Source of the DNA: Candidatus Krumholzibacteriota bacterium
GTDB taxonomy: Bacteria > Krumholzibacteriota > Krumholzibacteriia > JAJRXK01
Reading direction: 5' to 3'
Assembly: GCA_963764625.1 (NCBI GenBank)
Contig: CAVXTH010000009.1
Location: forward strand, 640,001-704,000
DNA length: 64,000 bases
In this document: one piece after another, positions 1 through 3,959 of the stretch
Layout: each line of letters starts with the position of its first letter
How positions within the stretch are numbered: position 1 is the stretch's first letter
Notes under the pieces: generated by a model
Seen by the model: only the letters and a program-made list of their open reading frames with translations
Told to the model about the DNA's origin: nothing
Database searches by the model: none
Program-made: the position numbers and the translations under genes

Positions 1-1068
1 GGTCATGGCCGCGGCTCCGCTCTCCAGGCGGCGCAGATAGAGTGCCATCCGGGCCTCATTCAGCAAGTGTCCGGTGTCGTTGCTGGCGCTTCCATCCACT
101 CCCAGTCCGACCGAGACCCCGGCGGCGCGGAGGGTGGGTACCGGACACACGCCCGACCCCAGGCGCATATTGGAGGTGGGACAATGCGCGATGCCGATTC
201 CCGCCTTGCCCAGACGATCGATTTCGTGCTCGTCGAACCAGATGCCATGGGCCAACCAGACGTCGTCTCCGACCCACTCGACCTCTTCGAGGAAGTCCAG
301 CGGACGACAGGAAAAATGCCGTAGGCAGAACCCGGTCTCATCCCGTGTCTCGGCCAGATGGGTGTGGAGGCGCACGCCTTCGGCGCGCGCCAGACGCGCG
401 GTCTCGCGCATGAGGTCCCGGCTCACCGAGAACGGCGCGCACGGGGCCAGCCCCACCTGGTGCATCGAATAGCGCGCCGCGTCGTGCCAGCGCTGAATGA
501 CGCGCTCGCTGTCGAGCAGGATCAGGCTCTCGTCCTGCGTACACGAACGGGGCGGCAGTCCTCCCTGCGTATCGTCCACGCTCATCGATCCGCGGGTTCC
601 GTGAAACCGAATGCGCATCGCGGCCGCGGCGTGGAAGGTTGCATCCAAAAGATCGGGGGCGCCCGCACGCGGGAAGAGGTAATGGTGATCGCTGGTGGTG
701 GTGCACCCCGAGAGCAGCAGCTCGGCGAAGCCCACGCGGGCGGCTAGATCCAGATTCTCCGGGGTGAACCCGGCCCAGATGGGATAGAGGGTGGTGAGCC
801 ACTGGAAGAGTTCCGCGTCGGCGGCCGGTCCGAAGGCGCGGGTCAGATTCTGACAGAGATGATGGTGGACGTTCACCAGCCCCGGGATGACGACTCCGCC
901 TCCCAGTTCGACGACCGTCTCCCCGGGCCGGGGGGTGGGCTCGCCCTCGCCCAGCTCCACCACCATGGGACCTTCGCTGCGGATCCAGGCATCCCGCAGG
1001 ACCCGCCGGGCCGGATCCATGCAGACCAGGGTGCCGATCCCCCGCCAGAGTGTGAAGTGCGCGGACAT
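1..1068 (-). CDS. 8-oxoguanine deaminase / AtzB-like amidohydrolase (C-terminus runs off the window edge)
   Basis: Missing from the ORF track; translated by hand from ATG 1068: MSAHFTLWRG...IPGLVNVHHHLCQNLTRA...ELLLSGCTTTSDHHYLFP...LHTHLAET...AHCPTSNMRLGSG...GLGVDGSASND. These are amidohydrolase metal motifs, and the frame is open to position 1. Confidence 0.88.
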   Translation of the reverse strand, partial: MSAHFTLWRGIGTLVCMDPARRVLRDAWIRSEGPMVVELGEGEPTPRPGETVVELGGGVVIPGLVNVHHHLCQNLTRAFGPAADAELFQWLTTLYPIWAGFTPENLDLAARVGFAELLLSGCTTTSDHHYLFPRAGAPDLLDATFHAAAAMRIRFHGTRGSMSVDDTQGGLPPRSCTQDESLILLDSERVIQRWHDAARYSMHQVGLAPCAPFSVSRDLMRETARLARAEGVRLHTHLAETRDETGFCLRHFSCRPLDFLEEVEWVGDDVWLAHGIWFDEHEIDRLGKAGIGIAHCPTSNMRLGSGVCPVPTLRAAGVSVGLGVDGSASNDTGHLLNEARMALYLRRLESGAAAMT

Positions 1069-1309
1069 GGGCAGAGAGTAGCAGGAGCGCGGATTCTGAG
1101 AAAGTCTGCAAACGCGCCGAATTTCGGCCCAGAACAGGCTTTCACATCAAGTTTGTTGTCTCATTGTGTTGTGTTACAGCATTTCACAGCAAAATGTCGA
1201 TCCCGAAGGTCCCTTGACCCATCAAAACTCCACTGGGTTGCCCGGAGAATTCTCCTGGAACTTCTTGTGTAGAAGGAAGTTAAAAAACCTGTCCGAAAGT
1301 GGCCGGACT

Positions 1310-1325
1310 TGGCACCCGGCCTGCT
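1310..1325 (+). promoter_or_regulatory. sigma54 (RpoN) -24/-12 promoter
   Basis: TGGCACCCGGCCTGCT matches TGGCAC-N5-(T)TGCW with exact GG-N10-GC spacing (GG 1311-1312, GC 1323-1324). An AT-rich tract lies upstream (about 1140-1290). Predicted transcription start about 1336. Confidence 0.8.
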
Positions 1326-1335
1326 TACGGAACCA

Positions 1336-1721
1336 GAGATGCCACACGGACACCTCTGACTTGCGTGGTTTGAAACGGCGACAAAGTCGCGAGCGGGCGA
1401 CGCAAGAAGTGTGGAAGAAGAGGAGACGGAGCCCGAGTGGAGCTCGACAGAGAAGCGCTGCGCCGGTCACCCCACGACCCCACCCAGACCGGCGCGCCCA
1501 TCGGGAAGCGCTGGAGCGAATCGAGGGTTCTGTAGCAAGGAAAGGGTTCCGGGGAGTTGGCGAGAACTCCCTCAAGATGCCGCCCGGCATCGGTGAGCCC
1601 TCAGCTGACGACGTTGCGGTCGGTGCTCTTGGCGAGGGAGCATCGCCCCTCGACCGAATTGGTCCCGTCGCCAGTCCCCATGCGGGGCGTCCCAATCAGG
1701 GAGGGCGCCCCGCGTTTTTTT
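1336..1721 (+). ncRNA. candidate sigma54-dependent structured ncRNA of about 385 nt, family not recognised
   Basis: Bounded by the sigma54 promoter and a + strand terminator, with no credible ORF. Nested helices: 1342-1347/1409-1414, 1360-1366/1400-1406, 1454-1459/1507-1512, 1460-1468/1487-1495, 1523-1530/1595-1602, 1552-1558/1565-1571, 1576-1581/1586-1591, 1621-1630/1636-1645. Confidence 0.68.
1682..1721 (+). terminator. Rho-independent terminator of the + strand transcript
   Basis: Stem GCGGGGCGTCC...GGGCGCCCCGC followed by GTTTTTTT. There is no A-tract on the left side, so the U-tail works only on the + strand. Confidence 0.82.
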
Positions 1722-1733
1722 GTCCGTTTTTCC

Positions 1734-3716
1734 TCAGTTCTCGTCCTCGAGTTGCTTGCGCATCCAGGCGGGGCCCCTGCGCTGGAGAGCCTGAAGCACC
1801 GGCTCGTATTGAGCGGGCAGACGCTGAAAGGCCTGGCCCAAGATGTCGTCTTGCAGCGCTTTCAGGACCTGATTGAGAAGCCGAATGGTGCGTCGTTTCA
1901 CGCGGTGGCGCGGTTGCGATCCGGCGGTGAGAAGTTCGATCACCCGGGCGGTCGATCCACTGCTGACGAAGGCCTTCAGGGTCTCACCGTCGAGATAGTG
2001 GTTCATCTGGACTCGATCGACGATGGCCACGGGCTGGCCATGCGCGCGTCTTGACCTGAGTTGGCGGCTCGCCTCGAGCAGATTGAACCCGTTCTCGCGC
2101 CAGGCCGAGAGAATCTGTTCCTCGACGGAATCGCCGGTTCCACCCCGCGGGAGCGAAGCCTCCACTCCGTCCCTTGGTTGCTCGTTTCGCTGCGCGCCGG
2201 CGAAGCTCTTCTGTGGGTCGCGTCCCGCCGCCGCGGGGCCCGGGGCACCTTCAGGGGACTGAGGATCCGCGAGGGGTCGTTGACTCAGCTGCTGACTCGC
2301 GAACACGCGGCGCAGATGTTCGAGCCGAACGTGACGTTCGTCTCGGCTGCGGATGGCCAGCGCCTCGATCATGTTTTGGAGTTCGCGGACGTTGCCCGGG
2401 AAGAGATGGGCCTGAAGAGCGGAGATTACTTCAGGGTCCACCACCGGCTCCCGCAATCCAAAATCGGCGTAAAACCGCTTCAGAAACGCGCGGCTGAGAA
2501 TCTCGATGTCTCCGATGCGCTCACGCAGCGGGGGAAGGCGCAGCGGGTAGACTTGAACGCGATAGAAAAGGTCCTTGCGGAATTCCCCGCGTGCCACCGC
2601 TTCTCTGAGATCGACGTTGGTGGCGGCGACTACTCTGACGTCCACCGATCTGGTCTTCTCGCCCCCGACCGGTCGGAAGCGACCCTCCTGCAGCGCGCGC
2701 AGAAGGCGCGTCTGTGAGGCCAGGCTCATGTCTCCGATCTCGTCCAGAAAGAGGGTCCCACGATGCGCGAGCTCGAACGCGCCGCGCCGATCGCGCACCG
2801 CACCGGTGAATGCGCCACGCAGGTGTCCGAAGAGTTCGCTTTCGATGAGCTCACGGGGAATCGACGAACAGTCGACGATTTCCAGCGGTCCCCCCTGGCG
2901 GGCCGAGAGCTCGTGGATCGCGCGCGCCACGATTTCCTTTCCCGTACCACTCTCTCCCTGGATGAGCACGGTGGCGCGGCTGGGCGCCAGCTGCACCATG
3001 TCGCGGAAGAGCTGGAGGATCACTCTGCTTTCCCCGAGGATTCCGCGCAGTGGGGGATAGTTCTCGCGGAGTTCGCTCAGGGCGAGGGAGACTTCGCGAT
3101 GCACGTTTGTGGGAGTGCGTCCCAGGATGGGCGCCGGTCCCGCTCCTCGCTCGAGGGCGAGAGTGTAGAGCTCGGCCAAACTCGCGAAGACCTCGAGATC
3201 GTTCGACGAATACCCCTCGCTCAGAAGGCGCCTTCCCAAGAGCAAGAAGCCGAAGAGTCCCTGACGGCCGATGAGCGGACACACCACCGCGGCGTCGAGG
3301 GTCTCGATCTCCTTGCCGTAGGAGTGGAGGAAGTCCCCGGCCGGGCCGGGCACAAGATCCTGGTCGACGCGAAACGGCCGTCCATCGCTCTTTTGCTCGA
3401 AAGCCTGCGCCAGGGTACCCGGAAGGGGAACCTCGACTCTCTCCTCGATGTCCAATCCCGCGTGAACCAGAAGCTCCATGCGCTCGCGAGTGGGATCTCG
3501 CCGGAGGACGCTGGCCGAGGATGCGCCCAGGACGCCGATGACCGAGAGAAGCACGCGGCGGACCACGTCGTCCGCGTCCCGCGCGCGCAGGAGCTCGCGG
3601 CTGGTCTCGACCAGAGTGAGCAGCTCGAAGATGCGGGTCTGCAGGTCGTCCGTGCTCGCGTGGGCGAAGTCGAGGTATTCACCCGTGAACGGTATTTCTT
3701 CCTCGCGGTCGATCAC
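1734..3716 (-). CDS. sigma54-dependent enhancer-binding activator: GAF + AAA+ + atypical C-terminal domain
   Basis: GESGTGKE Walker A, GAFTGA, FLDEIGD Walker B, DLFYR, PGNVRELQN; N-terminal GAF-like region. GTG 3716 has the RBS GGGAGG (the ORF track starts at 3740). Confidence 0.93.
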   Translation of the reverse strand: MIDREEEIPFTGEYLDFAHASTDDLQTRIFELLTLVETSRELLRARDADDVVRRVLLSVIGVLGASSASVLRRDPTRERMELLVHAGLDIEERVEVPLPGTLAQAFEQKSDGRPFRVDQDLVPGPAGDFLHSYGKEIETLDAAVVCPLIGRQGLFGFLLLGRRLLSEGYSSNDLEVFASLAELYTLALERGAGPAPILGRTPTNVHREVSLALSELRENYPPLRGILGESRVILQLFRDMVQLAPSRATVLIQGESGTGKEIVARAIHELSARQGGPLEIVDCSSIPRELIESELFGHLRGAFTGAVRDRRGAFELAHRGTLFLDEIGDMSLASQTRLLRALQEGRFRPVGGEKTRSVDVRVVAATNVDLREAVARGEFRKDLFYRVQVYPLRLPPLRERIGDIEILSRAFLKRFYADFGLREPVVDPEVISALQAHLFPGNVRELQNMIEALAIRSRDERHVRLEHLRRVFASQQLSQRPLADPQSPEGAPGPAAAGRDPQKSFAGAQRNEQPRDGVEASLPRGGTGDSVEEQILSAWRENGFNLLEASRQLRSRRAHGQPVAIVDRVQMNHYLDGETLKAFVSSGSTARVIELLTAGSQPRHRVKRRTIRLLNQVLKALQDDILGQAFQRLPAQYEPVLQALQRRGPAWMRKQLEDEN

Positions 3717-3959
3717 GAATCCTCCCCGTGATGGAGTCACGCGTCAGCCCAGAGGACATACGCACGAATCCCCCGGTGGGTTCGAAAGCTCGCAGCGGTG
3801 GCGAATCAAAGGCGAGACTAGCATGAAGCCGCCTCGCTGTCCCTCGCGGCCCTTTACGCCTGCCCGCGAGGCTTCTACACTCCAGCTTCCGGTCGCCGGC
3901 GGCGAGCAACAAGACGCCACCGCGGCCGAGAACGACTTTCCTTCAGCCGGAGGCTCGCC

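Follow-up and report, generated by a model that had tools for sequence, protein, structure and literature searches.

A candidate sigma-54-type regulatory RNA family with repeated GGCGAR hairpin loops, in one order of Krumholzibacteriia

The window, the 64,000-nucleotide stretch of DNA analysed here, belongs to the metagenome-assembled genome (MAG) of an uncultured Krumholzibacteriota bacterium (G000; assembly of 3.57 Mb, 96% complete). Its positions 1310-1721 carry, on the + strand, a -24/-12 promoter and a strong terminator without a conserved open reading frame (ORF), and the locus is single-copy in the assembly (Table 1). An earlier reading of the sequence alone had placed both flanking genes on the - strand, and they are indeed there: an amidohydrolase gene on the promoter side, and on the terminator side a gene whose product is identified as a bacterial enhancer-binding protein (EBP) by its GAF_2, Sigma54_activat and AAA_lid_14 domains. 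That reading also proposed the + strand promoter, which recurs with the same spacing in 16 of 16 homologues, and a terminator whose U-tail works on the + strand only, as is seen from the seven T that follow its hairpin. Its claim that the gap holds no credible protein stands as well. The only + strand ORFs inside the interval encode 61 and 32 amino acids and are not conserved, and no small ORF is shared among the 15 homologues that were compared: three of them have no ORF of at least 15 amino acids, and the ORFs of the remaining ones vary in position and frame. The promoter-side neighbour is not conserved across loci either. It is an amidohydrolase in the window's genus (g1) and in G005, a flavin reductase in three loci, a TetR protein in one, and a protein without Pfam match in all others. 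A terminator-like hairpin on the - strand (stem 1308..1291 followed by a T-run, together 1281-1308) abuts the -24 element; it is present in one of the 16 homologous loci.

Table 1. Features of the RNA locus and its flanks, in window coordinates.
Feature	Position	Strand	Basis or remark
Amidohydrolase (Amidohydro_1) gene, promoter side	1..1068	-	Pfam
Candidate upstream activator sequence, TGTTGT at 1154-1159 and 1167-1172	1152..1190	.	~140-155 bp upstream of promoter
Sigma-54-type promoter, TGGCAC-N5-CTGC (-24 GG, -12 GC); predicted start ~1336	1310..1324	+	Sequence
5' domain, CCACAC 1342-1347 / GTGTGG 1409-1414 around CTTGCGT 1360-1366 / ACGCAAG 1400-1406	1342..1414	+	Minimum-energy fold
Central domain, long irregular helix closed by 1426-1433 / 1526-1533	1426..1533	+	Per-sequence folds
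9-bp hairpin with C-rich 18-nt loop (1469-1486), at central-domain junction	1460-1495	+	Folds
Small hairpin at central-domain junction	1497-1505	+	Folds
Three-way junction stem, 1544-1549 / 1595-1600	1544..1600	+	4/6 pairs change on both sides
Hairpin A, loop GGCGAG 1559-1564	1552-1571	+	4/7 pairs with two-sided changes; 97% of cells paired
Hairpin B, loop GCCC	1576-1591	+	3/6 pairs with two-sided changes; 97.9% paired
Long-range stem 1604-1612 / 1667-1675, around hairpins C and D	1604..1675	+	7/8 pairs with two-sided changes
Hairpin C, loop GGCGA 1631-1635	1621-1645	+	Lower stem: 6/7 pairs with two-sided changes
Hairpin D	1652-1664	+	4/4 pairs with two-sided changes; poorly aligned, 78.9% paired
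Intrinsic terminator, stem 1682-1693 / 1699-1713, then T7 (1715-1721)	1682..1721	+	Sequence and covariation
EBP, 668 aa: GAF, sigma-54 interaction (AAA+), lid, apparently split helix-turn-helix, C-terminal helical extension	1734..3740	-	Pfam (first three domains)

Sigma-54 promoters combine a GG at -24 with a GC at -12, at the spacing of TGGCAC-N5-TTGC; transcription starts about 12 nt past the -12 GC and requires both RpoN and an EBP, whose upstream activator sites usually lie some 80-200 bp upstream of the promoter. The pattern TGGCAY-N5-NTGC is found at the equivalent position in 10 of 10 genome homologues and in all six new metagenome homologues, and the distance from the promoter to the 3' domain of the RNA downstream of it is kept at 210-230 nt in all 16 copies. 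The host encodes rpoN (Sigma54_DBD, 217.9 bits, C9:980674). Upstream of the promoter, CAACA/TGTTG 5-mers occur one to seven times within 230 nt in every one of the 16 loci, against about 0.3 expected from genome frequency, and palindromic pairs of them lie at -100 to -170 in 11 loci; G000 itself has two direct copies only. The repeats suggest that the EBP may bind them and activate the promoter from there.

The EBP gene is convergent with the RNA, its stop codon lying 13 nt from the T-run of the RNA in G000. An EBP ortholog adjoins the RNA tail-to-tail in all 16 RNA loci (54-100% identity). The count is 10/10 for the genome loci and seven of eight for the metagenome loci. Full-length orthologs (at least 56% identity) are restricted to the nine RNA-bearing genomes among 151 genomes of the class. 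More distant GAF-EBPs (38-40% identity, five loci in another family, f3) were considered as well and have no promoter or motif cluster alongside. Within the window's EBP, Pfam assigns GAF_2 to residues 53-197, Sigma54_activat to 234-400 (222 bits) and AAA_lid_14 to 406-489, and leaves 490-668 without annotation. The protein scores below all curated NCBIfam equivalog cut-offs (NifA, 316 bits versus 529; NorR, 306 versus 476). In a confident structural model of its C-terminal 130 residues (window 1734-2123; pLDDT 94.8, pTM 0.87, from nine sequences), the helix-turn-helix appears to be split by an insertion of about ten residues and to be followed by a helical extension of about 75 residues. Comparison with solved structures gave no convincing match for this domain (best Foldseek E-value 1.5, best VIA-align Z 4.5), and the domain was found only beside the RNA.

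When 185,579 species genomes were scanned for the motif, six loci emerged: four in Candidatus Krumholzibacteriota/Krumholzibacteriia MAGs, one on a MAG contig that is the same as the contig of G009, and one in Streptomyces, probably there by chance. With a covariance model built on the 3' domain (R1; 195 positions, 53 pairs), the RNA is found at 70-204 bits in nine of the ten genomes of the host's family, which in our sample coincides with the order, and in no other family of the 151-genome sample of the class. R1 also gave matches of 20-26 bits in ten further genomes of the class; the seven that were inspected are GC-rich terminators behind ORFs, and the others match part of the model only. 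The tenth genome of the family (G003, 93% complete) has neither the RNA nor an EBP ortholog, its best EBP match being at the level of the AAA+ core. RNA and EBP gene lie side by side, so a single gap in the assembly might account for both being missing. G002 has two copies (on contigs C9 and C8), each between an amidohydrolase and an EBP gene (78-88% identity), and for the whole locus, which occurs twice, identity is about 80-88%; because this bin is 88% complete and 7% contaminated, they probably stem from two strains and are not paralogues. With the C-terminal domain of the EBP (alignment A5) as the handle, eight metagenome loci were picked. Seven contain the RNA, at 48-204 bits, and the eighth had matched the EBP domain over 51 residues only. 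The same handle, applied to the species genomes, led to eight loci, all of them Krumholzibacteriota or MAG contigs already in the set. The resulting 16 RNA copies comprise ten from nine genomes and six new ones from metagenomes. The family does not extend beyond a single order of Krumholzibacteriia.

The sigma-54 promoter pattern has about 20 intergenic matches in the G000 genome. By our crude gene calls, seven of these are without a same-strand gene within 400 nt, among them the RNA's own promoter and a second TGGCAC-N5-CTGC outside the window, at the head of G000:C9:885705-886330. Downstream of the latter lie some 600 nt without a called gene, with a 7-bp hairpin carrying a CTGGCGAGA loop at 886010-886032. 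R1 does not match this stretch, which may represent a further RNA under sigma-54 control or else a long leader.

The RNA would be about 385 nt long in the window and 325-402 nt in relatives, with 65% G+C. The minimum free energy of 1336-1721 on the + strand is -175.6 kcal/mol, and shuffled sequences average -159.05 (z -2.77; reached by 2 of 100); on the - strand z is -0.56, with 26 of 100 shuffles as good. Chance does not account for what the sequence-only reading noted, as promoter, terminator and fold recur in 16 of 16 homologues. The stems that this reading had named are present in the minimum-energy fold, among them CCACAC/GTGTGG around CTTGCGT/ACGCAAG, the 9-bp stem with its 18-nt loop, and a further hairpin. 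One part has to be redrawn: a junction of three hairpins closed by GAGGGTTC/GAGCCCTC is not what the comparative data give. According to these, the first copy, GGTTCTGT (1526-1533), forms with ACGGAGCC (1426-1433) the closing helix of a central domain of its own, and the second GGGTTC (1544-1549) pairs with GAGCCC (1595-1600) and closes a junction with two hairpins.

The domains differ in how they vary. In the G000 clade the 5' domain is a single large hairpin, and its inner helix shows two-sided changes in the close relatives from G002. Most other homologues have two hairpins there; outside the genus the domain gives way to one or two different hairpins, of which several bear GGCGAR loops. 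The central domain could not be aligned by MAFFT (MAFFT with RNAalifold gave just five pairs), and per-sequence folds were used instead. In these, its architecture is the same in 15 of 15 homologues, including a GGCAAGG internal loop on the 5' side of the long helix, and the sequence of the outer helix differs from lineage to lineage. The terminator helix has two-sided changes in 8 of its 15 pairs, with 94.4% of cells paired; its loop is AATCAGGGA in G000 and TTGGCGAGA in most relatives.

Covariation in relatives, which had been named as a check, was analysed on 16 aligned 3' domains (alignment A6) and 59 pairs, that is, the R1 structure plus the added junction stem. In this alignment, which was fitted to the model and therefore favours the structure, 90.5% of cells are paired, compared with 77.3% in shuffles, a value that none of 500 shuffles reaches. 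When the partners are slid by one to three columns, 44-52% of cells remain paired. Two-sided changes affect 39 of the 59 pairs, versus 22.0 in shuffles, over sequences that represent about 11 lineages of one bacterial family and are thus not independent counts; the covariation score is 0.408, versus 0.188 after shuffling. In an alignment of seven sequences made by MAFFT only, 13 of 53 pairs show the signal. Despite the model-fitted alignment, the slid controls and the MAFFT-only result indicate that the covariation signal is real, and the frequent G-U pairs identify the + strand as the RNA strand.

The stretch is present in salt-marsh metagenomes and in five RNA-library runs. In all four of the runs that were examined, which are salt-marsh metatranscriptomes, contigs identical to the window were found, and they jointly cover 1309-1689. 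The zero-mismatch contigs span 1348-1689 (depth 11.7), 1309-1567 (depth 34.7), 1354-1619 (depth 14.9, an adapter on either end) and 1375-1525 (depth 2.9), and they show presence in RNA libraries, not strand, ends or expression level. Outside the RNA, on 700-1308 and 1690-2700, no RNA-library contig equals these in identity or depth, and there are two low-depth pieces, 1922-2072 (five mismatches) and 2364-2396, although missing contig cover on the flanks proves nothing.

These contigs and the gene order bear on the idea that the RNA is a cis-antisense partner of the EBP mRNA, with the two genes overlapping at their 3' ends and the RNA acting on EBP expression, as a form of autoregulation, by pairing or by transcriptional interference. 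The two genes converge in all 16 loci, with 13 nt from EBP stop codon to T-run in G000 and no - strand terminator behind that stop codon. In addition, one of the RNA-library contigs reaches back to 1309, which is 27 nt ahead of the predicted start, so that it includes the promoter and ends beside the - strand hairpin at 1291-1308. However, that hairpin exists in one of 16 loci only, and for an antisense function neither an elaborate covarying fold nor repeated loops would be needed. The EBP gene has no RNA-library contig of similar identity, which, given that missing cover is not evidence, adds little. We consider an antisense role very unlikely.

Known RNA families do not account for the locus. 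With Rfam 15, whose families include 6S, RNase P, CsrB, RsmY/Z, CrcZ, GlmY and Qrr, there were no matches at the gathering threshold in the 64-kb window or in ten homologue loci, and in E-value mode 1050-1800 gave chance-level matches only, the best of them, below threshold, at 16.8 bits versus 100. The earlier reading had seen no RNase P, tmRNA or SRP signature. The 6S RNA (C6:723021, 55.7 bits) and RNase P RNA (C6:131032, 301 bits) of G000 are encoded elsewhere in the genome. The promoter of sigma-54 type, the terminator on the + strand, strong covariation, presence in RNA libraries and the want of both a conserved ORF and an Rfam match together bear out the proposal of a new regulatory RNA family, and we regard it as very likely that this is a genuine sigma-54-type structured non-coding RNA. 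Beyond what had been read from the sequence are the adjacent EBP partner, the repeated GGCGAR loops and the limitation of the family to one order.

The hairpin tips of the RNA repeat a motif, GGCGAR, which takes the form UUGGCGAG in the window and CCGGCGAA, CAGGCGAA, UGGGCGAG or GGGGCGAG in relatives. In 15 RNAs (5.6 kb), it occurs 62 times in sense and twice in antisense orientation, with about 7.6 occurrences expected from genome frequency, and 52 of the 62 sense copies cap stems of at least 4 bp. It is found in hairpins A and C of every homologue and, outside the G000/G002 clade, in all terminator loops; some homologues also have it in the 5' hairpins or in hairpin D. Copies per RNA range from two to six, the window RNA having two canonical ones, and the invariant core is the five bases GGCGA. 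So few invariant bases, a copy number that varies from two to six, and a motif that moves among hairpins, even into the terminator loop, point to a site for a protein rather than a pairing seed.

Could the loops instead be GNRA-like modules for tertiary contacts or self-assembly, in a large structural RNA or a component of a ribonucleoprotein? A length of 325-402 nt, several junctions and covariation in every helix tested would suit such a particle, and GGCGA could presumably take a GNRA-like fold with one base flipped out, as in boxB pentaloops. Yet no conserved receptor motif was identified, the number and position of the motif vary between lineages, which is unusual for fixed tertiary contacts, and signal-dependent control by sigma-54 and an EBP fits a regulator better than a housekeeping particle. 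The narrow distribution speaks against a structural role too, and we find it improbable.

For a protein-binding role, the candidate partners CsrA and Hfq were not found in the host. CsrA was found in none of the five genomes of genus g1 (G000-G004), in which the only matches were chance ones of 19 bits inside long ORFs; the sister genera G005-G009 have genuine CsrA (about 84 bits), as do most other families of the class. A search of G000 (96% complete) for the Hfq family found none. With CsrA missing from genus g1 and Hfq from G000, both are unlikely partners. We also examined a sponge for Hfq/Crc of the CrcZ type, which is recognized by A-rich (AAnAAnAA-like) motifs and by Hfq in the host, and rejected it: the RNA has 65% G+C and no A-rich repeats, and Hfq was not found in G000. 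ANTAR proteins bind paired hairpins with hexaloops whose first base is A and whose fourth is G. The GGCGAG hexaloops have G at both positions; G000 has one weak ANTAR match in an ORF (C6:56001-56087, 25.4 bits, or 30.1 with in-frame neighbours), and no other tandem pair of GGCGAR hairpins, as would be expected of ANTAR cis targets, stands out in its genome.

A divergent CsrA sponge of the CsrB/RsmZ type would account for repeated G-rich hairpin loops. In its favour are the genuine CsrA of G005-G009, the CsrA-site-like terminator loop CAGGGAG of the G000 clade, and the divergent Krumholzibacteriota CsrAs that are reported in PMC13443453. However, genus g1 keeps the RNA and the motif (G003 being without the RNA) and has no CsrA in any of its five genomes. 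The loops also lack GGA, GGGA being limited to the terminator loop of the G000 clade, and Rfam gives no CsrB/Rsm match. A CsrA sponge is therefore hardly credible.

A second conserved element is the C-rich box GGYCACCCCAYCGG in the loop of the central hairpin, a box that most of the 15 homologues share and that is single-stranded in their folds. It is the basis of another reading, in which the RNA pairs through this apical loop with G-rich ribosome-binding regions of mRNAs, and GGCGAR is structural or a second seed. The host does use Shine-Dalgarno sequences, with a GGAGG peak at -20 to -10 (216 in the bin versus about 50 elsewhere), and we take the box to resemble the pyrimidine-rich tail of 16S rRNA. 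However, no target was found: GTGGGG-type words peak only by way of GTG start codons, in gene calls that are crude (longest ORF with a GC3 filter). For GGCGAR as a seed, CTCGCCA(A) as its complement has a density of 141 (47) per Mb in start regions (-60..+30) versus 157 (47) per Mb in coding sequence, and its positional profiles around the starts of G000 are flat. The word TTGGCGAG is not rare in this genome, with 245 copies. As Hfq was not found in G000 and a single seed would leave the two to six repeated loops unexplained, we judge base-pairing rather unlikely.

The reading that we favour, tentatively and short of an even chance, is that the RNA is a decoy that titrates an RNA-binding protein. 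Its short invariant core, variable copy number, display on hairpin tips and signal-sensing EBP are the anatomy of CsrB/RsmZ and CrcZ, and it is this analogy that speaks for titration. Against it stand the number of canonical copies in the window RNA, only two, and the GGCGAR hairpins elsewhere in G000: 55 of 543 (10%) are intergenic, no excess over the 12% of the genome that is intergenic, so that no matching set of mRNA sites is visible. The GAF domain would sense a signal, whereupon the EBP would activate the sigma-54 promoter and a trans-acting regulatory RNA of about 385 nt would be made. Its fold would comprise the hairpin domain at the 5' end, the long central helix with the C-rich loop at its tip, the three-way junction, the long-range domain and the terminator. 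Its two to six GGCGAR hairpin tips would then serve as decoy sites, as those of CsrB/RsmZ do for CsrA and those of CrcZ for Hfq/Crc, and would convert EBP activity into a post-transcriptional response. A more elaborate form of the decoy model would make the RNA the decoy arm of a Csr-like global system, in which a protein that binds GGCGAR tips operates in a lineage that lost CsrA and Hfq, a GAF EBP sets the RNA level, and the anti-Shine-Dalgarno-like C-rich loop adds a second function. We consider this form unlikely.

Several known systems share part of this organization. CrcZ is a sigma-54 sRNA with an adjacent EBP activator and a repeated motif that titrates Hfq/Crc. The RNA described here resembles CrcZ/CrcY-CbrAB of Pseudomonas in being a sigma-54 sRNA by an EBP gene and in repeating a short motif, but CrcZ has A-rich single-stranded motifs and a receiver-domain activator, whereas here GGCGAR sits in GC-rich hairpin tips, the EBP is of the GAF type and the genes are convergent; there is no similarity in sequence or in Rfam. 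With CsrB/RsmY/RsmZ it shares several hairpins and one short G-rich motif in many loops at variable copy number. The loops of those RNAs have GGA and depend on CsrA, whereas ours have GGCGAR in a genus without CsrA, and their promoters depend on GacA/UvrY, whereas the promoter here is of the sigma-54 type. Pxr of Myxococcus is an sRNA of about 100 nt with three stem-loops, encoded beside the EBP gene nla19 with a predicted sigma-54 promoter. It resembles our RNA in its place beside a sigma-54 activator gene and in its promoter, but it is short and lacks GGCGAR repeats, and our RNA has no Rfam match. GlmY-GlrR and Qrr-LuxO are likewise sigma-54/EBP-dependent, but GlmY and Qrr are enterobacterial and vibrio RNAs of 100-200 nt, without repeated loops and without a GAF-type EBP, and Rfam matches neither of them here. 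GlmY is reported to act as a protein decoy for RapZ (PMC7073468), and Qrr1 to be activated by two EBPs (PMC10162802). The family reported here is thus a new one of a known type, that of regulatory RNAs with an EBP, a sigma-54 promoter and repeated loops, with a new motif, a new type of sensor and probably a new partner.

A literature search returned nothing that links Krumholzibacteri* to RpoN and nothing with the motif words, and for Krumholzibacteri* with sRNA it returned only one paper, which concerns CsrA variation (PMC13443453). Given this, the RNA may be the first regulatory RNA candidate for the candidate phylum. Its range is narrow, one order of an uncultured phylum. The module of an EBP gene and a sigma-54 sRNA, so far seen mostly in Proteobacteria, also occurs in a remote lineage without cultured members, where it has a different sensor domain and a different repeated motif. 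Because the host lacks CsrA and Hfq, the GGCGAR loops point to a new RNA-binding partner, and because the RNA is present in salt-marsh metatranscriptome assemblies, it is open to study without culture.
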